Made by a program: the position numbers and the translations under genes. 36,681 nucleotides of DNA from Kiritimatiellia bacterium (GTDB lineage: Bacteria; Verrucomicrobiota; Kiritimatiellia; RFP12; UBA1067): the NCBI GenBank assembly GCA_017508315.1, contig JAFVZE010000299.1, positions 1 through 36,681 of the forward strand, read 5' to 3'. How positions within the stretch are numbered: position 1 is the stretch's first letter; each line of letters begins with the position of its first letter. Positions 20,787-30,684 of this stretch are shown one piece after another. Under the pieces are notes generated by a model. That model was given only the letters and a program-made list of their open reading frames with translations, did not search any database and had not been told where the DNA came from.

Positions 20787-22550
20787 ATGAAACTCGATCC
20801 GACGAAGATGAAGGACTGGCAGATAGCCGAAGCCGCGGAAGAGACGCTGCGCCCGGTCAGGGAACTGGCCGCGGAGCTGGGACTTGCCGAGGACGAATGG
20901 CAGGCTTACGGCGACGCGCTCGCGAAGGTGGACGTCACCAAGGTGCTGAAACGCGTCGGTACGGGTCGCGGAGGCAAATACATCGATGTCACCGCCATCA
21001 CCCCGACGGCGCTCGGAGAAGGCAAGACCACGACCACGCTCGGTCTCGTGCAGGGATTGGGCAGGCTCGGCAAAAAGGTGATCGGCTGCGTCCGTCAGCC
21101 CTCGGGCGGCCCGACCTTCAACATCAAAGGCTCCGCCGCGGGCGGAGGTCTCGCGCAGGTGGTGCCGCTCACTTCGCTTTCGCTCGGGCTCACCGGCGAT
21201 ATCGACGCGATCACCAACGCCAACAATCTGGCGATGGTCGCGCTCAACTCCCGGATGCAGCACGAGCGCAACCACGACGATGCGTGGCTCGCCGAGCGCG
21301 GACTCAAGCGTCTGGATATCGACCCCGGACGCATCCAGTTCCGCTGGGCGATGGATTTCTGCGCCCAGGGGTTGCGCAGCATCGAAATCGGGCGCGGCGG
21401 AAAACTTGACGGTTTCAACTGCGAAAGCGGCTTCTACATCACGGTCGCCTCGGAGGTGATGGCCATTCTCGCCATGAGCGCCGATCTCGCCGATCTGCGC
21501 AGACGCCTCTCGAAGATCGTCGTGGCCTATTCCAAGTCCGGCGATCCCGTCACCGCCGCGGATCTCGAGGTCGACGGTGCGATGTGCGCGCTTCTGGTCA
21601 ACGCCATCAAGCCCACGCTCATGCAGTCGCTCGAAGGTCAGCCGATGTTCGTCCACGCCGGTCCTTTCGCCAACATCGCCATCGGACAGAATTCCGTCGT
21701 CGCCGACAGGCTCGCATGCGCTCTCGGCGATTACGTGGTGACCGAGTCCGGCTTCGCCTCCGACATGGGCTACGAGAAGTTCTGGAACATCAAGTGCCGC
21801 TGCTCCGGACTCAAGCCGGATGCGGTCGTGCTCGTCGCCACGGTGAGGGCGCTCAAGGCCCACGGCGGCGCGCCGGCGGTGAAGGCCGGGCTGCCGCTCG
21901 ATCCGGTTTATACGACCGAGAATCTGGAGCTGCTGGAGAAGGGCTGCGACAATCTTCTGGCGCACATCGACATCATCCGCCGCTCCGGCGTCCAGCCGGT
22001 GGTGTGCCTGAACGCATTTTACACCGACACTCCCGCCGAGCGCGATCTCGTGCGCCGCATCGCCGAAGAGGCCGGCGCGTCCTTCGCGGTTTCCGACCAC
22101 TGGCTCAAGGGCGGCGAGGGTGCGCTCGAACTTGCCGAGGCGGTCGTGAAGGCGTGCGAAGAATCGAACGGTTTTTCGTATCTCTGCGATCTGAACGAGC
22201 CGCTTAAAGACCGTATCGAAAAGCAGGTGAAGGAGGTCTACGGCGGCGACGGCGTCGATTACGAGCCGCTCGCGCTGGAGAAGCTTGAAGCGTATCAGGC
22301 GGATGCGGAAACCGCGGCGCTGCCGATTTGCATCGCCAAGACGCAATATTCGCTTTCCCACGATCCGAAACTTCTCGGACGTCCCAGGGGCTGGCGCATG
22401 CCGGTTAAAGACGTGCTCGTCTACCGCGGCGCCGGACTGCTGGTGCCGGTGGCCGGCGAGATCAAACTCATGCCCGGAACGTCGGCGTCGCCCGCCTACC
22501 GCCGAATCGACGTCGATGTCGAAACCGGAAAAGTCAAAGGACTCTTCTAA
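20787..22550 (+). CDS. fhs: Formate--tetrahydrofolate ligase
   Basis: VTAITPTALGEGKTTTT P-loop and long collinear Fhs-type sequence. ATG 20748 (ATGA overlap) is an alternative start. Confidence 0.9.
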   Translation: MKLDPTKMKDWQIAEAAEETLRPVRELAAELGLAEDEWQAYGDALAKVDVTKVLKRVGTGRGGKYIDVTAITPTALGEGKTTTTLGLVQGLGRLGKKVIGCVRQPSGGPTFNIKGSAAGGGLAQVVPLTSLSLGLTGDIDAITNANNLAMVALNSRMQHERNHDDAWLAERGLKRLDIDPGRIQFRWAMDFCAQGLRSIEIGRGGKLDGFNCESGFYITVASEVMAILAMSADLADLRRRLSKIVVAYSKSGDPVTAADLEVDGAMCALLVNAIKPTLMQSLEGQPMFVHAGPFANIAIGQNSVVADRLACALGDYVVTESGFASDMGYEKFWNIKCRCSGLKPDAVVLVATVRALKAHGGAPAVKAGLPLDPVYTTENLELLEKGCDNLLAHIDIIRRSGVQPVVCLNAFYTDTPAERDLVRRIAEEAGASFAVSDHWLKGGEGALELAEAVVKACEESNGFSYLCDLNEPLKDRIEKQVKEVYGGDGVDYEPLALEKLEAYQADAETAALPICIAKTQYSLSHDPKLLGRPRGWRMPVKDVLVYRGAGLLVPVAGEIKLMPGTSASPAYRRIDVDVETGKVKGLF

Positions 22551-23353
22551 TGAAAAGAAAAATCGTTCTCGTCGTCTCCCTGGCGGCCGGGCTGCTGGCC
22601 GCGGTGCTGACGCGCGTGTGCATCTCCGCCAAGGACGCGGAGGTGAAGGCGCTCAAAGACTCCATCAACCGGCGGTACGGAACGATGGAGGTTCTGTGCT
22701 TCGCGCGCGAAATCCCTTCGGGGAGCGAGCTCGCCAAATCCGACCTCGGGCTGAAGACGGTGCCGGCCGTCGGCATGCGCGGACAGGCGCTGACGGCCGA
22801 GAACGTCGCCGACGTGGTCGGGCGCAGGGTGCTTATCGGGCATAAGCGCGGGGATGTCGTGTTCTGGTCCGATATCGAAGGCGGCGATCCGTCCGCGACC
22901 GGACTTTCCGCCGACGTCAAGCGCCAGATGCGGGCGGTTTCGATCAACTGCACGGGGGCGGCGAGCGTTTCTTCGATGGTGCGTCCCAACGACCACGTCG
23001 ACGTCATCGGCACTTTCGATTTCGAAGGCGCCGGCGGCCGCCGCAATTTCGTGACCTGCACCATTCTGCAGAACGTGCTGGTGCTCGCCACCGGTTCCGA
23101 AACCGCGAAGTCGCGTCTGCGTTCGCAGGGGATCAGCCGCGCCTACTCCACGGTCACGCTCGAAGTGACCCCGCGCGAGGCGGAAATGCTCGCGTTCGCC
23201 GAGCAGATCAAGGGGCGGCTGGTGCTCACCCTGCGCAACCGCAACGACACTTCCTACGAGAAGGAGCTCCCCAAGGTCGATTTCGAGAAAATCCGCGGGG
23301 AGATCGAAGAGTTGAACCTCAAACGCCAGACCCAGAAACTGACGAACCGCTGA
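22550..23353 (+). CDS. cpaB: Flp/Tad pilus assembly protein CpaB/RcpC-like
   Basis: N-terminal TM helix, a SAF-like segment (IPSGSELAKSDL...GDVVFWSDI), then the CpaB/RcpC region (VSINC...VRPNDHVDVIGTF...VLVLATG...VTLEVTPREAEMLAFA). Confidence 0.75.
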   Translation: MKRKIVLVVSLAAGLLAAVLTRVCISAKDAEVKALKDSINRRYGTMEVLCFAREIPSGSELAKSDLGLKTVPAVGMRGQALTAENVADVVGRRVLIGHKRGDVVFWSDIEGGDPSATGLSADVKRQMRAVSINCTGAASVSSMVRPNDHVDVIGTFDFEGAGGRRNFVTCTILQNVLVLATGSETAKSRLRSQGISRAYSTVTLEVTPREAEMLAFAEQIKGRLVLTLRNRNDTSYEKELPKVDFEKIRGEIEELNLKRQTQKLTNR

Positions 23354-23354
23354 T

Positions 23355-25004
23355 ATGATTCTGACCTCGCTCATCGACGGCAATCGCGAAACCCGGGAGC
23401 TCGAAGACGGAGCCTATCTGATCGGGCGGGCGGAAAACTGCCGGATATGTTTTCCGTTTCCGGACGTCAGCGAGCGCCATGCCATTCTGACCGTCCGCGA
23501 CGGCCGTGCCCTGCTTGAAGATCTGCACAGCGCCAACGGCACGTTCGTCAACGGCGAACGGATCGATTCCGCCTGCAGGCTCGACGGTTCGATGGTGGTG
23601 CAGATCGGCTCGGGGATGTTCCGCGTGAGCGAAAGCGCGCCCGAGGCCGTTGATGAAGAGGCCGCGGAGCCGGAAGACGTTCCGGAAAATACGCCCGGGG
23701 ACGCTCCGGACGAAACGGCCGATCCGCTCAGAAATCTCCGGCGCAACGTCCAGACGCAGATCCAGATGGAACTTCTCAAGCGTATGGACATGAAGAAGCT
23801 CACCGTTCAGGGCGTGGACCGGGAAGGTCTGGAGGAAAACGCCCGCGACAGGATACGGCAGATCATCGACGAGGTCGTCGCCAACGGACGGCTTCCGCAC
23901 GGGATCGATCCCATCCGGCTGGAAGAGGATGTGTTCAACGAAGCCATGCGTCTGGGACCGCTGGAGGAACTGCTCGCCGATGATTCGGTCTCGGAAATAA
24001 TGGTCAACGGGCCGGAGAAGGTGTATGTCGAGCGCAACGGCAAACTGCTGCTTTCCGACTGCCAGTTCGCCGACGACGCGAGCGTGATGGCGGTGATCGA
24101 ACGCATCGTCTCGCCGCTCGGCCGGCGCATCGACGAATCGCAGCCGTATGTGGACGCGCGGCTTTCGGACGGCAGCCGCGTCAACGCGATTATCGCTCCG
24201 CTCGCGCTTTCCGGTCCTACGGTCACCATCCGCAAGTTCGCCAGAAAAGCGCTCACGCCGGTCGACTTCATCCGTTACGGCACCTGGACGAAGGGAGCGG
24301 CGGAGTTCATGCGGCTTTGCGTCGTTCTGCGCAAGAACGTGATCGTCGCCGGCGGAACCGGCTCGGGCAAAACGACGCTCCTGAATCTGCTTTCGGGTTT
24401 CATCCCCCCGGCGGAACGCATCGTCACGGTCGAGGACGCCGCGGAACTGCGTCTTCAGCAGCCGCATGTCGTCAGGTTGGAGGCGCGTCCGCCCAACATT
24501 GAAGGCAAGGGAGCCGTCCCTATCCGCGACCTCGTGAAAAACTGCCTGCGGATGCGCCCGGACCGCATCATCGTCGGCGAATGCCGCGGCGGCGAGGCGC
24601 TCGACATGCTTCAGGCGATGAACACCGGACACGACGGTTCGCTCACGACGGTTCACGCCAATTCGCCGCGCGATGTCATCTCGCGTCTGGAGACGATGGT
24701 GCTCATGAGCGGCATGGAGCTCCCGAGCCGCGCCATCCGCGAACAGATCGCCTCCGCCGTCGACATCATCATCCACGAATCGCGCATGTCCGACGGTTCG
24801 CGCAAAGTGACGTCGATAACCGAGGTGACAGGGCTTGAAGGCAGCCAGATCGTCATGCAGGAGATTTTCGCTTTCAAGCAGTCCGGTGTCGACGGGAACG
24901 GCAAGATCATCGGCGAAATGAAGCCGACGGGTTCGGTGCCGACATGGATCGACCAGCTCAAGAGCCGCGGCATAGAATTCGACATGGGGGTGTTTTCCGA
25001 ATGA
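23355..25004 (+). CDS. cpaF: CpaF/TadA-family secretion ATPase with an N-terminal FHA domain
   Basis: FHA motifs (GR...SERHA...NGTFVNG) at the N-terminus, then an acidic linker. Walker [13 protein letters not shown] and [33 protein letters not shown]. Confidence 0.88.
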
Positions 25005-25678
25005 CCGCATGGCTCGCCACGCTCCTGTTCGCCTTGTGCTTCGCCGGTGTCGCCTGGTGCATCGTCGGTTCGATCAGGATAAAATCCGGCTGGCAGAACG
25101 GCACTTCGCCGCTTGCGCGGTATCTCGACTTCCGCCGCCGCGAAGCGTTCAACGCGCAGCTCCCGGAGGCGCTCTCGACGATGTCGAACGCTCTCAGGGC
25201 GGGTTTTTCCGTTTCCCAGGCGTTCGATTCCGTGGTGGACCGCGGCGAGGATCCGATGAGCGAGGAGTTCCGGATCCTCCAGCAGCAGCTGAAGATCGGC
25301 ATGGGTTTTGAAGAAGCGCTCGAATCGATGGCGGGCAGAGTCGGCTCCGACGACTTGACTCTGGTCACGACCGCCATCCTCATAAGCCGCAAGACCGGAG
25401 GAAACGTCACCGAGATATTCGACAAGATATCCGAGACGATCCGCGGACGCATGAAGATCGAGCGTAAGGTGAAGTCGCTGACGGCGCAGGGAAGAATGCA
25501 GGGGATCATCGTTTCGGTTCTGCCGTTTTTCCTTGCGGCGGTGATGACGGCCATAAAGCCCGGACTCATGCTTCCTTTTTTTGCGAGCGCGGCCGGGATG
25601 CTGGCGATGCTGTTCACCGTCGCGCTTATCCTGATGGGATGGCTGATAATCCGTAAAATCGTCAAGATAGACGTATAG
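25001..25678 (+). CDS. TadB/TadC-type platform protein with a single T2SSF domain
   Basis: LPEALSTMSNALRAGFSVSQAF ... GNVTEIFDKISETIR ... KVKSLTAQGRMQG pattern of T2SSF domains. ATGA overlap with cpaF. Confidence 0.75.
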   Translation: MTAWLATLLFALCFAGVAWCIVGSIRIKSGWQNGTSPLARYLDFRRREAFNAQLPEALSTMSNALRAGFSVSQAFDSVVDRGEDPMSEEFRILQQQLKIGMGFEEALESMAGRVGSDDLTLVTTAILISRKTGGNVTEIFDKISETIRGRMKIERKVKSLTAQGRMQGIIVSVLPFFLAAVMTAIKPGLMLPFFASAAGMLAMLFTVALILMGWLIIRKIVKIDV

Positions 25679-27084: not shown

Positions 27085-27714
27085 ATGAAAGAATGGTATG
27101 TGAGAACCGAAGAAGGCAGCGTTTACGGACCGGCGGATGTCGATTCGCTCGTGGAATGGGCGAAGGACGGTCGGATCGCGCCTTCATCGTTCATTTCTAA
27201 AGACAGGATTTCGTGGGTTCCCGCCCAGACGATGGGCGAGTTGGAGATGAAGTGGCTGGTGGAAACGGAGCCCGGCAAGGTTTTCGGGCCGTTCAACCGC
27301 AAGGTCGTCATTTCGATTTTTGGCGACGGAAGCGTTCCGGCCGGTGCAAAAGCATACCGGCTGCACGAGTTCCCGGTGGACGAAGATCCGCCGCCGGTGG
27401 AGAAGATCGTCGAGATTCCGGTGGAAAAAATCGTGGAAGTCGAAAAGGTTGTCGAGGTCGAGAAGATCGTCGAAGTGGAAAAGGTGATCGAGAAGATCGT
27501 CGAGGTTGAGCCTAAGGCGCGGGTCGAACTGATTGTTCCGGAAGCGGTCGAGCCGGTCGGTGCGGAACCTCCGCCCAAGGCGAAGGATTCGCTCTTCGGC
27601 TCGTTGGGAAAGAACGGTTTGGCCGCGCTTGAGGCGCAGGCCCGTCGTGAATTGGCCGCGGCCAAGGGAGGTTTTTTCTCCCTGCCCGGCGGAAAGTTCG
27701 GGAGGAAGCGTTGA
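27085..27714 (+). CDS. GYF_2 (DUF4339)-like domain protein with (V/I)EKIVE repeats
   Basis: WYVRTEEGSVYGPADVDSLVEWAKDGRIAPSSFI..WVPA, then a second degenerate module, then 38 codons of EKIVE-type repeats and a basic tail. Confidence 0.7.
   Translation: MKEWYVRTEEGSVYGPADVDSLVEWAKDGRIAPSSFISKDRISWVPAQTMGELEMKWLVETEPGKVFGPFNRKVVISIFGDGSVPAGAKAYRLHEFPVDEDPPPVEKIVEIPVEKIVEVEKVVEVEKIVEVEKVIEKIVEVEPKARVELIVPEAVEPVGAEPPPKAKDSLFGSLGKNGLAALEAQARRELAAAKGGFFSLPGGKFGRKR
27397..27510 (+). repeat. In-frame coding repeat VEKIVEIPVEKIVEVEKVVEVEKIVEVEKVIEKIVEVE
   Basis: Imperfect repeat units of 12-24 nt read directly from the DNA. Shares atcgtcgagattccggtggaaaa with 28126-28148. Confidence 0.9.
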
Positions 27715-29138
27715 TGAACATCTCCAAATGGTATCTGCGAACCCAGGATGAAACTTTCGGCCCGGAAACCGGCGAACAGCTGGTCGCCTGGGCGAAACTC
27801 GGGCGCATCCAGCCCGGACAGGAGATTTCCGACGACAATATCATCTGGCGCCGGGTGGAGGAGGTGCCGTTTCTGGATATGCGCTTTTCCATCGATATAG
27901 GGGACGGCAATCCCCGCGGGCCTTTCAACAAGGCCGCCGCGCAGGCGCTGCTTTCGAGCGGCCGACTGCCGCCGACGGCCAGCATGGTCGAAGTGCGCGA
28001 GCCGTTTCCCGAGGAAACCGTCGACCGGGAGGAGCCGTCGGAAGCGGATGAAACGGCGGAGGGGGAGAAAGTTCCCGACGAGGCGGAGAAGGAAGTCGGG
28101 GCGGTGGAGAGGATTGTCGAGAAAATCGTCGAGATTCCGGTGGAAAAGATCGTCGAGAAGGAAGTGCGTGTGGAAATCCCGGTGGAGAAGATCGTCGAAA
28201 AGACCGTGATCGACGAAACGAGGGTGAAGGAACTTGAAGGGTTGCTCGCCGAAGAGCGCAGGCATACCGCGGATCTGCAGCGCCGGGTCGACGAATCGCT
28301 CGGGAACGCAGCGGCCGCCGCGCGTGAAGCTGCGGAAAAGGAAAGTTCCCTCTCGGTGCAGGTGAGCGAGCGCGACGGCAGAATCCGCGAACTTGAAGGC
28401 GCCTTGTCGGTCAAGGAGTCGGCGCTCAAAGATGCCGTCGACCGTGAAAACCTGCATGCGGAACAGATTCGCCGTCTTGAGGACGAACTGCGCCGGCTGC
28501 CGCAGGCCGCGAGCGAGGTCGCGGACATCCAGGCGGCGATATTCACGATAATGTCGCGGGAGTCCGAAGAGCTCGCCAGACTGGCCGAAATCGAAAAGAA
28601 GGAGTTCGATGAGTTCCGCAAGCGCCATCAGGAGCGGGTGGATCGCCTGCAGGAGCGGCGTCGCGACATACTCAAACGCTCGGGGTCGAACATCGAGGAG
28701 ATGACCCGCAGGGCGCTGATCGAACGGCCGGAGGATCCGCGCACCGCGCAGCTGCGCACCGAGCTCGACGAATTGCGCAGGATGCACGAAAAGGCGATGC
28801 GCGAAAGCGAAAGACGCATCGGCGAGCTCAACGGCAAGCTGCGTCTGCGGCAGACCGAAGAGGCCCGCGCGAAAGAGAATCTCAAGGATGTCACGCAGCT
28901 GCGCTCGGAGGTTCAGGCGCTGCGCGAACAGCTGCAGCTGCGGGAAAAGGAACTGCTCGCCGAGCGGCAGAAGAACGAAGAGCTCCAGCAGCGTCAGGCC
29001 ACCCGCCAGCAGGCGCTCATGGCGCGTATCGCCTCGCTTGAATCGCCGTCGATCGGGACCTCCCAGACGCTTTCGACGAATCAGAGCCGCGAGGCCAAAC
29101 AGGTGAAACTTCCGGGATGGATGAGACTGGGGCTGTGA
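27714..29138 (+). CDS. GYF_2-like domain protein with (V/I)EKIVE repeats and a long coiled-coil region (paralogue of the upstream gene)
   Basis: WYLRTQDETFGPETGEQLVAWAKLGRIQPGQEI..W, a second module, VERIVEKIVEIPVEKIVEKEVRVEIPVEKIVEK, then about 280 aa rich in heptad-like E/R/L/Q sequence. TTG 27711 is an alternative start. Confidence 0.7.
   Translation: MNISKWYLRTQDETFGPETGEQLVAWAKLGRIQPGQEISDDNIIWRRVEEVPFLDMRFSIDIGDGNPRGPFNKAAAQALLSSGRLPPTASMVEVREPFPEETVDREEPSEADETAEGEKVPDEAEKEVGAVERIVEKIVEIPVEKIVEKEVRVEIPVEKIVEKTVIDETRVKELEGLLAEERRHTADLQRRVDESLGNAAAAAREAAEKESSLSVQVSERDGRIRELEGALSVKESALKDAVDRENLHAEQIRRLEDELRRLPQAASEVADIQAAIFTIMSRESEELARLAEIEKKEFDEFRKRHQERVDRLQERRRDILKRSGSNIEEMTRRALIERPEDPRTAQLRTELDELRRMHEKAMRESERRIGELNGKLRLRQTEEARAKENLKDVTQLRSEVQALREQLQLREKELLAERQKNEELQQRQATRQQALMARIASLESPSIGTSQTLSTNQSREAKQVKLPGWMRLGL
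28104..28208 (+). repeat. In-frame coding repeat VERIVEKIVEIPVEKIVEKEVRVEIPVEKIVEKTV
   Basis: Second copy of the EKIVE-type repeat family, in the paralogous gene. Confidence 0.9.
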
Positions 29139-29139
29139 G

Positions 29140-30684
29140 ATGAACATACTGTTTGCCGTAATCGCCGCGCTTTCGATCTGGGACTATCCGGCCCGCCAGC
29201 CGACGCATGAGAAACTGCGCCGCCAGTTCATGGCGGCGATGAAGGAGGGCGATACGCCGTCGATGACGGATGCCTGCCGCAAAGGCGTCTCTCTGCTGCC
29301 CGACGATCCGACGTGGCGTTACAATCTCGCCTGTTCGCTGGCGTACTACAAGAATCCGGAACCGGCGTTCGACGAACTCGAAAAGGCGATCGATCTCGGT
29401 TTCCGCGATGCCGACGCGATCGAGCGCGACAGCGATCTCAAACGGATCAGCCGTCTGCCGCGTTTCCGCGAACTCGTCGATTACGCCCGCAGAATCCGCA
29501 CCAGACCGATCATGACCGGTCCGATGGCGAACGTGGCGGCGACGGGAATATTCGGCAAGACCGTTTCTCTGGGCGAGCAGAATCTGTCGTGGGACTTCGA
29601 CCACGGCTGTTTCGTCGCGAATCTGAAGCTTGCGCAGGCGTCCGCCGGGGGCAATTCCGGCGATCTTTATTTCAATCGCGACGCCCTGCATTCGGCGTTG
29701 CCGCTGGCGGATTTTCCGGGAATTACCGCAGTCCGGCTCGATCAGCAGGGACGGGAGCGGCAGATGGATCTCAATTTTCCGAATATGCTTTTCCCCTATC
29801 CCGTGTTCGGCAACTGTTCGCGGGCGTTCGTCGCCGGAAAATACTGGCGGTCGCTCTCCCGTGCGCTCACGACCATGGATTCGTGGCGGATGAAGGCGAT
29901 GGTGAAATTCTATCTTTCGAACCAGACATGGGTGTTTCCGTCCAACGCCGATACCGCGCCGGTGGGTACCAACGGCGATGTCTTCGCGTCCATCACCCCG
30001 TATTGGATCACGACCGCCGGCCGCAGTTATTCCGATCTGCCGTATCTGCGCGCGGCGCTTGAGGCGTCCCGTTCGTTCAGACCGGAAACGAAAAAGGCGG
30101 CGGTCGCCGCCGGATTGCTCGCGCCGACCGTTCAGACGCTGATCCGCAAATCGCTCAAGGGGGTGGATGACGAGGAGGACTACCTGACTTCCAAGGCCCA
30201 TCCGACGGCGTTCCCTCCCAATGCCGTCGAGATGATGCGTCTGTCCGCGGCCGCCGGAAAGATGAAGCCGGAGGAGATTCCGCCGCTTGCGATGATCGGA
30301 GTTACCACCATGCCGATGAAGAGCGCGGATCCCCGTCCGGAGCTTACGTACGCGAGCGCGTTCGCGTGGGCGTTCGTCCTCCGCGCCGATGCCGAAGAGC
30401 GTGTGTTTTTCATCAACGCCAGAGGCGCGCAGGAATTCGCTTTCGTCAAAACCCGCGGCGACGGCGTGGACGTGCGCATTGAGAAGACCTCTCCCGATAC
30501 CGCCAAGGTTCTGATCAACCGCAGGGGAATGTCGCCGACGAACCGGGTCGATGTCGCCGTGTTCGGAAAAAACGCCGCAACGGGATGGGGGGCGCCGAGC
30601 TACGTTTCGTTCGCCCGCATGGACAGCGGCGCGGCGTATTCCGATCCGGTGCTGACAACTCCGCCGCCGCCAGCCGAGAAATGA
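29140..30684 (+). CDS. Hypothetical protein: N-terminal anchor/signal, a TPR-like module, and a large unknown domain
   Basis: WRYNLACSLAYYKNPEPAFDELEKAIDLGFRDADAIERDSDLKRISRLPRFRELV is a common TPR-end pattern. I recognise nothing in the remaining ~390 aa. Confidence 0.6.
   Translation: MNILFAVIAALSIWDYPARQPTHEKLRRQFMAAMKEGDTPSMTDACRKGVSLLPDDPTWRYNLACSLAYYKNPEPAFDELEKAIDLGFRDADAIERDSDLKRISRLPRFRELVDYARRIRTRPIMTGPMANVAATGIFGKTVSLGEQNLSWDFDHGCFVANLKLAQASAGGNSGDLYFNRDALHSALPLADFPGITAVRLDQQGRERQMDLNFPNMLFPYPVFGNCSRAFVAGKYWRSLSRALTTMDSWRMKAMVKFYLSNQTWVFPSNADTAPVGTNGDVFASITPYWITTAGRSYSDLPYLRAALEASRSFRPETKKAAVAAGLLAPTVQTLIRKSLKGVDDEEDYLTSKAHPTAFPPNAVEMMRLSAAAGKMKPEEIPPLAMIGVTTMPMKSADPRPELTYASAFAWAFVLRADAEERVFFINARGAQEFAFVKTRGDGVDVRIEKTSPDTAKVLINRRGMSPTNRVDVAVFGKNAATGWGAPSYVSFARMDSGAAYSDPVLTTPPPPAEK

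Follow-up and report, generated by a model that had tools for sequence, protein, structure and literature searches.

Within the 36,681-nt stretch of DNA analysed here (the window), two adjacent genes, A and B, encode translationally coupled paralogues, the stop codon of A overlapping the start of B by 1 nt (TGATG). The two proteins have 41% identity across B residues 4-160 and share a layout in which an N-terminal tandem GYF module is followed by a (V/I)EK(I/V)VE tract and then by a conserved C-terminal part (Table 1). The full order in A is tandem GYF module, PPP motif, VEKIVE tract, PPP motif, helix and basic/aromatic tail. For B, whose 474-aa form is the gene-called one (P0001), residues from about 170 to 445 are predicted to form a coiled coil of roughly 275 residues; the region holds only 4 prolines in 275 residues and its hydrophobicity spectrum peaks at 3.5, 2.3, 3.6 and 7.1-7.2, the heptad harmonics, coiled-coil calls in both A and B being made from composition and periodicity only. 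One source names a B orthologue "chromosome segregation ATPase", and no publication on the A/B protein pair was found in the literature searched.

Table 1. Features of the A/B gene pair, in window positions
Feature	Position	Strand	Description	Basis
Gene A	27085..27714	+	209 aa	ORF; Pfam GYF_2; alignment with 40 A-type relatives; AlphaFold2 model
A head	27085..27384	+	Residues 1-100; two GYF-like subdomains, compact	AlphaFold2, Foldseek
A first proline motif	27379..27396	+	Residues 99-104, DEDPPP; conserved, directly before tract	Alignment
A repeat tract	27397..27510	+	38 aa, VEKIVEIPVEKIVEVEKVVEVEKIVEVEKVIEKIVEVE	Translation in 209-aa ORF frame
Shared 23-nt string, first copy	27406..27428	+	ATCGTCGAGATTCCGGTGGAAAA; encodes IVEIPVEK	Exact match
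A second proline motif	about 27562-27576	+	EPPPK, second PPP, after tract	Alignment
A C-terminal part	27610..27711	+	Helix 176-194 (LAALEAQARRELAAAK) and tail GGFFSLPGGKFGRKR	AlphaFold2, conservation
Gene B	27714..29138	+	474 aa from ATG 27714; 475 aa if TTG 27711	ORF
B linker	28008..28103	+	About residues 99-130; acidic, proline-containing	Translation; variable alignment columns
B repeat tract	28104..28208	+	35 aa, VERIVEKIVEIPVEKIVEKEVRVEIPVEKIVEKTV	Translation in B ORF frame
Shared 23-nt string, second copy	28125..28147	+		Exact match
B predicted coiled coil	28221..29048	+	About residues 170-445; segmented	Periodicity, composition
B C-terminal tail	29106..29135	+	KLPGWMRLGL	Conservation
p514	29140..30684	+	514-aa gene directly 3' of B; Pfam only weak TPR_9	tblastn synteny

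Both tracts lie where an earlier note on this DNA had placed them, although its second string stopped two residues short of its own end coordinate. There are 6 matches to the motif [VI]E[KR][IV][VI]E in A and 4 in B, a count that none of 20,000 residue shuffles of either protein reached (means 0.003), and all 10 occurrences in the six-frame translation of the window fall within these two proteins. The repetition is mainly at the protein level, since Tandem Repeats Finder reported only a weak 18-bp array (27431-27485, 3.1 copies, 72% matches). By composition the 38 residues in A comprise 13 V, 12 E, 6 K, 6 I and 1 P, with the beta-branched Val and Ile making up about half of the tract residues. 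Units of 6, 8, 12 and 14 residues are present in the window tracts, among them VEKIVEIP and VEKIVEVE, which contain the EKIVEVP-type core, and autocorrelation peaks at 14 and 28 in A-type relatives.

Beneath this variable unit length runs a two-residue register. Scored over 36 residues, the A tract has 11 of 11 acidic residues at even and 6 of 6 basic residues at odd positions, an arrangement that 0 of 5000 shuffles matched. In the tracts of 120 B orthologues and 41 A-type proteins, respectively, acidic residues were at even positions in 1211/1212 and 1498/1506 cases and prolines in 289/289 and 354/356, and the tract was of even length in 120/120 and 40/41 proteins, with lengths ranging from 7-75 residues in the former set and 36-186 in the latter. 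Such a register fits beta strands. The even-length rule could in part be a by-product of the duplication of even-length units rather than of selection, and the five- to ten-fold variation in length argues against a precise ruler. AlphaFold2 monomer models showed neither helix nor strands in the tract, at low confidence, with pLDDT <50 for A residues 108-160 and 31-39 across a 188-residue stretch of an orthologue rich in repeats, values that fit a plain disordered linker equally well. The tract might be no more than a polyampholyte linker, flexible and intrinsically disordered, that lacks both defined structure and association, its pattern a relic of expansion. The low pLDDT in both models, the large variation in length and a location where other proteins carry flexible linkers all point that way; against this, a Val/Ile content as high as that of the tract, about half, is unusual for disordered linkers, and the register is nearly exceptionless in 161 tracts.

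The flanks of the tract are better defined. Pfam GYF_2 (PF14237) was matched by A at 27.1 bits (E 3.7e-6) and by B at 27.6 bits, both above the gathering score of 25.8, and pLDDT was 90-97 across A residues 1-100. The best Foldseek matches for this head were GYF domains (GIGYF2 7rup, Smy2 3fma and GltJ 7z3c; probabilities 0.98-1.0, E 5e-3 to 6e-2). All GYF rows, from GIGYF2, Smy2, GltJ and CD2BP2, had target TM scores of 0.45-0.64 and weak E-values of 5e-3 to 2, and no PDB entry matched at E <=1e-3; on these weak but consistent rows together with Pfam, the modelled A head is assigned a GYF fold. In the alignment of A-type proteins the consensus PIDQDPPP precedes the tract and PPP follows it, and PPP is also present some 35 residues from the C-terminus in the A proteins of coiled-coil type. 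The bacterial GYF domain of GltJ binds a proline-rich stretch preceding the AglZ coiled coil, according to the cited portion of PMC11135422, and by analogy the PPP motifs of A are putative GYF ligands and the tandem-GYF head is probably a binder of proline-rich peptides.

At the other end, the A helix 176-194 is predicted by AlphaFold2 with moderate confidence, and 41 A-type proteins as well as the orthologues from other families conserve the motif LAALExAAR(Q/R)EL...FGR(K/R). KLP(S/G)WMR(L/F) is conserved at the C-terminus of B in 120 orthologues, with similar W/M-R-L-K-R ends in B orthologues of other families. These tails presumably resemble the membrane-targeting ends of FtsA and MinD. A role as amphipathic-helix membrane anchors found no support, the helical hydrophobic moment of 0.06-0.48 not being raised relative to the protein medians of 0.28-0.31.

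The pair is widely conserved among relatives. With B as query, matches were found in 39 of 41 genomes (all 24 additional genomes of the genus; 13 of 15 genera), the order A then B is kept in 7 genomes of other families, and tblastn synteny showed a conserved order A-B-p514-Dus within the genus (G006, G019 and G013). The idea that A and B go with the Tad-like pilus genes nearby (CpaB, FHA-CpaF and TadB; 22550-25678) was dropped because these upstream genes were unmatched in the flanks of three other genomes of the genus, where A-B-p514-Dus is kept. In other families of the order, the A and B orthologues have the same head and tail and lack the tract in 7/7 genomes; in its place all seven A orthologues carry a stretch of about 160-200 residues that is rich in Ala/Leu and poor in Pro, and the B orthologues a Pro/Ala-rich linker. 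The tract was thus gained inside an existing bacterial gene and looks convergent or secondarily acquired, not inherited, in line with the suggestion of convergence in the earlier note.

Within the genus itself, A-type genes carry the tract in 8 of 11 cases and a helical segment in 3 of 11 (G015, G023 and G008), again with the same head and tail. Eight of nine segments of the helical type peak at heptad harmonics (2.3, 3.4-3.5 and 6.9), and their V+I content is 4-11%, compared with 40-43% in the segments of repeat type. Protein A of this genus therefore carries, at the same position, either the repeat or what is predicted to be a heptad coiled coil. The rule that A and B bear tracts together or not at all does not hold, B having the tract and A lacking it in the same 3/11 genomes. 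For the disordered linker these comparisons cut both ways: the absence of the tract from other families, with a Pro/Ala-rich linker there in B, would suit it, but in A the tract replaces a coiled coil and not a loose linker. Moreover, alveolin domains, though without structure when modelled as monomers, give (hetero-dimeric) beta-ribbons when modelled as dimers, as described in the cited portion of PMC12465100. Overall, we regard a purely disordered linker as a serious but rather doubtful explanation.

The earlier note had also pointed to a DNA string common to both genes, and this string of 23 nt indeed occurs exactly twice in the window, two matches being obtained in 0 of 100 dinucleotide-preserving shuffles. 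The EIP variant that it encodes is rare (2/120 B orthologues and 2/41 A-type proteins), and in G002 A and B share an identical 56-nt string carrying the rare VDRIVEKEVMVE variant; these identical strings with rare variants suggest exchange between the paralogues. An expectation that repeat number would vary was borne out between species, where tract lengths differ widely, but not between strains: near-identical DNA in contigs of 4 runs from 3 studies differed by transitions only, with no insertions or deletions. Contig cover from two RNA libraries was set aside as evidence for transcription, which contigs cannot show; DNA may also be present. Where cover is interrupted at the tracts, this does not indicate variation.

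Beyond this pair, phmmer queried with 51 B residues retrieved 143 representatives (of 1.84 billion), and the search for EKIVE[VI]P-type proteins that the earlier note had proposed found the repeat in genomes titled as 12 bacterial phyla and in many domain contexts, mostly between an anchor and a globular domain. The proteins lie on both sides of the membrane and include ParB, MutS, GrpE, OmpA-family, LptD_N, solute-binding lipoprotein, STAS, DUF2760 and TM-HhH types. The repeat is located before ParB_N, after MutS domain V, before the GrpE, DUF2760 and OmpA domains, after a lipoprotein-type N-terminus in the solute-binding protein, and between the N-terminal TM helix and the HhH/DUF4332 domains in the TM-HhH proteins. 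It is consequently an inter-domain segment of many unrelated bacterial proteins, as in the common functionless linker that the earlier note had named as the finding to count against it, but "functionless" does not describe it, given its strictly conserved two-residue register. The repeat search recovered seven loci titled or labelled Caulobacter, and a control with PF12314 was above the cut-off in Caulobacter vibrioides.

The cytoskeletons of malaria parasites, Toxoplasma, ciliates and euglenids have alveolins and articulins among their major proteins; the articulins of euglenids have related Val/Pro/Glu repeats, and both groups form membrane-skeleton filaments. No solved structure and no rules of assembly are known to us for their repeat domain. 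The likeness of the tracts to these repeats is real at sequence level but falls short in the window itself, where Pfam IMCp (PF12314) matched B residues 124-173 at 15.7 bits (E 0.02) and A at 12.6 bits, below the cut-off of 21.1 bits. A second IMCp match in the same genome (contig 137) was weak, lay in an aminotransferase-like ORF and was judged spurious. Some orthologues passed the cut-off (P0023, 28.0; P0068, 26.6; P0146, 31.2 bits), as did many other bacterial proteins, and the phmmer query of B retrieved a protein of the alveolate Chromera velia (P0272, E 3.4e-9; itself passing IMCp at 25.1 bits) along with euglenid (Ploeotia) and dinoflagellate (Effrenium) proteins.

Such matches could mean that the tracts are true IMCp homologues shared with alveolates by horizontal transfer, a process suggested for the Caulobacter "articulins" in the cited portion of PMC6212826. 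Significant E-values to the Chromera velia IMCp protein and to the euglenid protein are no proof of common descent for low-complexity repeats, however. The tracts are short (35-38 residues), were gained inside a bacterial gene, and have a period of 6-14 residues (14 in A-type relatives) and not the 12 given for comparison in the cited part of PMC4303705. No shared flanking non-repeat sequence was seen between the bacterial and alveolate proteins, and we consider this descent highly improbable. The tract is not an alveolin, neither by descent nor by formal test, and an EKIVEVP match in a bacterium is not evidence for a membrane skeleton.

A skeletal role could nevertheless have arisen independently, if the tracts of A and B paired, mutually or with themselves, as beta-ribbons that together with the B coiled coil would form an epiplast-like filament or sheet under the cytoplasmic membrane. 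Both coupled paralogues carry the tract and the tracts exchange sequence, the conserved aromatic/basic tails could touch the membrane, and the layout of B as head, rod and tail is IF-like; alveolins likewise need alveolin-alveolin pairing in the cited portion of PMC12465100, where the models are hetero-dimeric ribbons. Pairing between the A and B tracts is not obligatory, though, because A has a coiled coil in 3/11 genomes of the genus. The tails show no raised hydrophobic moment, and the same repeat occurs in periplasmic and DNA-binding, non-skeletal proteins, so that we think such a skeleton improbable. An equally long shot is the broader idea that A and B, through the B coiled coil and membrane-seeking tails, build a sub-membrane lattice presenting GYF heads to proline-rich partners, with the repeat as a general beta-ribbon rod of two-residue register and functional equivalent of a coiled coil. 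Were it true, the protist epiplast/alveolin skeleton would have a simple and tractable counterpart in bacteria to serve as its model, and the swap of coiled coil and repeat in one genus would be the first evidence for interchangeable rod types.

The reading that we favour, with somewhat better than even confidence, is that the repeat is a product of convergence, a rod or tether module that is prone to beta structure and exchangeable for coiled coil, and that forms the middle segment of a pair of GYF adaptors. Bacteria and protists have, in scattered places, a Val/Glu/Lys/Ile/Pro "acid-base dyad" repeat, of which the two tracts would be local copies that arose or were inserted within the lineage of the genus. 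Each member of this conserved cytoplasmic adaptor pair of Kiritimatiellae would consist of a folded tandem-GYF head, a variable middle that includes the repeat, and a conserved C-terminal part, comprising in A a short helix and basic/aromatic tail and in B a long coiled coil and KLPxWMRL tail. The most likely role of an elongated, beta-prone repeat would be to set the spacing between head and tail, to which self-association may be added. In evolution the repeat would be interchangeable with an alpha-helical coiled coil, its length drifting in two-residue steps, and gene conversion would homogenise it between the adjacent paralogues. The scattered spread, strict register and alternation with coiled coil make a rod or tether of beta geometry a testable idea, for which proteins of A and B type offer small, soluble bacterial material.

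Compared with known systems, A and B match the alveolins/IMC1 proteins (IMCp) of apicomplexans, chromerids, dinoflagellates and ciliates in the EKIVE(V/I)P core (consensus EKIVEVP in the cited portion of PMC12465100), in Val/Glu/Lys/Ile/Pro composition, in a head-medial-tail layout, in reciprocal retrieval with a Chromera IMCp protein and in unstructured AlphaFold monomers (for alveolins, the same portion). They differ in Pfam score, tract length and period, as set out above, in having GYF heads and a coiled coil as flanks, in a tract gained within one bacterial genus lineage, and in their host, an uncultured gut bacterium without alveoli, of Kiritimatiellae by the names given to close homologues, whereas alveolins belong to the subpellicular network under the alveolar sacs of alveolates. 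Epiplastins/articulins share with A and B a medial domain of acid-base dyads in which V, I, E, K and P are abundant; in A this V/I-rich dyad tract lies between the GYF head and the C-terminal helix/tail. For the epiplastins, the cited part of Goodenough et al. 2018 (PMC6212826) gives a prediction of beta-strand/coil without alpha-helix. Caulobacter, with "articulin-like" proteins in print (Goodenough et al. 2018, PMC6212826; Al-Khattaf et al. 2015, PMC4303705), is the only bacterium named for the repeat in the main texts of the literature searched; the Caulobacter ORFs recovered here have signal-peptide-like N-termini and Gly/His/Cys-rich tails, whereas A and B lack a signal peptide and carry GYF heads. 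B resembles crescentin-type IF-like proteins in its head, predicted segmented coiled coil of about 275 residues and short tail, and crescentin/filament Pfam models gave no match above cut-off in A or B. GltJ-AglZ of Myxococcus xanthus shares the bacterial-type GYF fold (Foldseek 7z3c, 28% identity over 53 columns) and proline motifs beside an elongated rod, but places GYF and proline-rich rod on two unrelated gliding-machine proteins in the cited portion of PMC11135422, whereas each of the paralogues has both; no Agl/Glt genes are present in the window. Among the sequences found, the nearest repeats (65-83% identical along the tract, E down to 1e-26) belong to TM-[coiled coil + VEKIVEKRVEVP]n-HhH/DUF4332 proteins of Betaproteobacteria, Thiotrichales, Saprospiraceae, Nitrospira and Acidimicrobiales, which JGI names predicted flap endonuclease-1-like 5' DNA nuclease. 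Their membrane-helix head, HHH_5/DUF4332 tail and many more repeat units set them apart from A and B, but the repeat alternates with short coiled coils and keeps the same dipeptide register.

The window is a piece of chromosome with housekeeping genes on the plus strand (ValRS, TyrRS, Der, LptF/G, LpxA, a Mur ligase, formate-tetrahydrofolate ligase, a CpaB/FHA-CpaF/TadB trio, an Fe-ADH_2 protein, Dus and others), among which lie the adjacent genes A and B, each with a (V/I)EK(I/V)VE repeat tract. The A stop codon and the B ATG overlap as TGATG, indicating translational coupling, and p514, the gene for a 514-aa protein that follows, is a possible further member of their operon. Beside the Tad/Flp-type trio, the window shows no gene for a pilin, a secretin or TadC.

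Coordinates of the A-B pair, its tracts and neighbouring genes
Feature	Position	Strand	Description
Tad/Flp-type trio	22550-25678		CpaB/RcpC; CpaF-type ATPase with N-terminal FHA domain; TadB-like T2SSF protein
Gene A	27085-27714	+	ORF, 209 aa
A tract	27397-27510	+	38 aa
Gene B	ATG 27714 (or TTG 27711) to 29138	+	ORF call gives the TTG start; gene-called protein P0001, 474 aa, fits ATG
B tract	28104-28208	+	35 aa
p514	29140-30684	+	Begins 2 bases past the B stop; hydrophobic N-terminus; weak TPR_9 match only

Translation returned exactly the tract sequences that an earlier note had reported for both genes, and the 23-nt string it described as shared is exact at 27406 and 28125 (two matches in none of 100 shuffles). 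The motif [VI]E[KR][IV][VI]E occurs six times in A and four times in B, counts reached by none of 20000 shuffles per protein. Translated in six frames, the window has 10 such motifs, every one of them in these two genes, to which the repeat is also confined in the window's own genome.

A and B are paralogues (41% identity across B residues 4-160), and both begin with a Pfam GYF_2 domain that passes the cut-off of 25.8 bits (27.1 bits in A, 27.6 in B). AlphaFold2, given 40 relatives, models residues 1-100 of A as two GYF-like subdomains at pLDDT 90-97; residues 108-160, including the tract, fall below 50, and a helix spans residues 176-194. The top PDB rows from Foldseek for this model were GYF domains of GIGYF2, Smy2, GltJ and CD2BP2, none of them reaching E 1e-3. 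In B the head is followed by an acidic linker, the tract and a stretch of about 275 residues that contains just 4 Pro and has a heptad-harmonic periodicity, features pointing to a segmented coiled coil; the protein ends in KLPGWMRLGL.

The pair is conserved. With B as query, matches were found in 39 of 41 drawn genomes. Within the genus all 24 further genomes matched, as did 13 of 15 genera, and completeness is 92-93% for the two genomes that gave no match; close homologues carry the source name 'Kiritimatiellae bacterium' (MAG proteins). The order A-B-p514-Dus is kept within the genus (G006, G019, G013), where the flanks of A-B gave no match to the upstream Tad-like and Fe-ADH_2 genes, and A followed by B is kept in seven genomes from other families of the order. 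The tandem GYF head is retained in these other-family orthologues, and so are the tails, L..LEAQAQREL...G..FKG(R/K) in A and W/M-(I/M)-R-L-K-R in B. None of them, A or B, carries a VEKIVE tract, and their A proteins have in its place 160-200 Ala/Leu-rich, Pro-poor residues.

The same replacement is found inside the genus, where 8 of 11 A-type genes have a tract and three (in G015, G023 and G008) a helical segment, both kinds being flanked by the same type of head, PPP motif and tail. The periodicity peaks of eight of nine helical A segments lie at heptad harmonics (2.3, 3.4-3.5, 6.9), that of the ninth at 4.0, and the Val plus Ile content of these segments is 4-11%, against 40-43% in repeat-type segments. 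Tract and coiled coil are thus natural alternatives at one place in A. Since B has its tract in all 12 genus loci that retain this part of the gene, while some A genes have a coiled coil, pairing of an A tract with a B tract is not obligatory.

Tract length differs greatly between species, from 7 to 75 residues in 120 B orthologues (median 36) and from 36 to 186 in 41 A-type proteins, among which the window's A is the shortest; in A-type relatives the unit VEKIVEKEVRVEVP gives a dominant period of 14. Numbered from the first Val of the tract, even positions hold 1211 of 1212 acidic residues in B and 1498 of 1506 in A-type proteins, as well as nearly every Pro (289/289 and 354/356), and basic residues occupy odd positions (816/906 and 835/1094). 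The tract length itself is even in 120/120 B and 40/41 A-type cases. For the window's A, 11/11 acids are even and 6/6 bases odd, matched by 0 of 5000 shuffles. Judging from sequence, a beta strand with an acidic face against a Val/Lys face would require a two-residue register of this kind; the register could also partly be a legacy of the duplication of even-length units.

Near-identical DNA was found in 20 runs from 10 studies, mostly gut metagenomes, with animal hosts where the host was recorded. In contigs from four runs (three studies; two are RNA libraries, whose contigs are no proof of transcription), the covered parts differ by transitions only, at 27456, 27487 and 14 more places, with no indels; 27487 A>G changes Ile to Val within the A tract. 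The variation in copy number suggested as possible between strains is therefore seen among species, but not visibly among these strains.

Sequence exchange between the two genes also appears to have occurred. The shared 23-nt string codes for IVEIPVEK, and its EIP variant is rare, being present in 2 of the 120 B orthologues and in 2 of the 41 A-type proteins; in genome G002, A and B have in common an identical 56-nt string coding for the rare VDRIVEKEVMVE variant. In five further loci where A and B both have a tract, the longest shared strings measure 12-26 nt; they measure 15 nt in the two compared loci with a coiled-coil-type A (L003, L004). This pattern fits gene conversion between neighbouring tracts.

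A wider search for bacterial proteins with EKIVE[VI]P-type repeats, as the earlier note had proposed, met the repeat in records titled from at least 12 phyla and in varied domain contexts. A word-seeded search with B residues 122-172 gave 1089 proteins of 261-832 aa at E <=0.01, among them Kiritimatiellae GYF proteins and many membrane-anchored proteins in which short coiled coils alternate with VEKIVEKRVEVP units before terminal HHH_5/DUF4332 domains. Exhaustive phmmer against 1.84 billion representatives returned 143 matches at E <=1e-3 and 31 at E <=1e-10; of 57 scanned with Pfam, 17 pass the alveolin domain IMCp, and partner domains include ZapA, Peptidase_C14, HHH_5/DUF4332 and the eukaryote-type Mcp5_PH, CAP-Gly and PDZ. 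Four of 10 looked-up matches are named Chromera velia, Effrenium voratum, Ploeotia vitrea and Diplonema japonicum. A one-genome-per-species scan with a 64-residue stretch of the repeat turned up more than 602 pattern matches; among the matches listed, tblastn confirmed 158, and 80 were retained. The record titles of these 80 loci span at least 12 phyla: Bacteroidota, Kiritimatiellota, Verrucomicrobiota, Planctomycetota, Pseudomonadota (including Caulobacter and Comamonas), Actinomycetota (Mycobacterium, Nocardia, Gordonia), Bacillota, Nitrospirota, Chloroflexota, Spirochaetota, Omnitrophota and a phytoplasma. In the 40 ORFs scanned from these 80 loci the repeat lies N-terminal of ParB_N, GrpE, DUF2760, OmpA or LptD_N domains, after MutS domain V, behind a solute-binding protein N-terminus or adjoining STAS domains.

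Several of these proteins deserve separate mention. ParB of Clostridia (L079, L088, L090, L101), MutS of Kurthia (L049) and GrpE of Selenomonadaceae (L033) have VEKIVEK(P/R)VE tracts of 26-45 residues in terminal or inter-domain linkers. A large, membrane-anchored family (P0122, P0124, P0134, P0138, P0167; L027, L038, L041, L046, L077, L100) starts with a single N-terminal TM helix, continues with as many as about 50 alveolin-like units in alternation with short coiled coils, and closes with one or two HhH/DUF4332 domains; its hosts are Betaproteobacteria, Thiotrichales, Saprospiraceae, Nitrospira and Acidimicrobiales. It could act as a membrane-to-DNA tether, and we found no published study of it in the literature. 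P0276 (193 aa) joins a ZapA cell-division domain directly to a repeat tract that passes IMCp (39.4 bits), so that here the repeat is attached to an FtsZ-ring protein. In a MAG titled Bifidobacterium breve, one contig (L042) codes for an actinobacterial, Mycobacterium/Gordonia-type repeat protein, which may be a binning error.

The best supported of the readings considered, to which we give a little better than an even chance, is that the tract serves as a module of beta-prone character, a rod or tether that can change places with a coiled coil, in a conserved pair of putative GYF adaptors. The defining feature of alveolins is the IMCp domain, whose consensus is EKIVEVP (PMC12465100), and their repeats have a 12-residue period common to articulins and plateins (PMC4303705). 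The likeness and its probable convergent origin, both suggested previously, are borne out by the motif and by the tract-free orthologues of other families, and tract length does vary. The filament or membrane-skeleton role suggested with them is a hypothetical one. The window proteins nevertheless stay below the IMCp cut-off (21.1 bits) and differ from alveolins in period and on cell-biological grounds; A and B are therefore not alveolins. Goodenough et al. characterise epiplastins by a medial domain of acid-base dyads, a structure predicted as beta/coil and a host that builds an epiplast (PMC6212826). The same paper reports articulin-like proteins in Caulobacter, with possible horizontal transfer, so bacterial look-alikes are already in print, in the sections concerned for Caulobacter only. 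The Caulobacter articulin-like ORFs seen here (L034, L035, L037, L061, L062) have signal-peptide-like N-termini and Gly/His-rich ...GGHGGCCGR tails, which suggests export rather than a part in a cytoplasmic skeleton. Alveolin domains are disordered when modelled as monomers and form beta-ribbons as hetero-dimer models (PMC12465100); the AlphaFold2 monomer models of the tract in A and in a repeat-rich orthologue are similarly unstructured, and the tracts may associate. Because the GYF domain of GltJ binds a proline-rich stretch of AglZ beside its coiled coil (PMC11135422), we propose that the GYF heads of A and B would, by analogy, bind the conserved PPP motifs.
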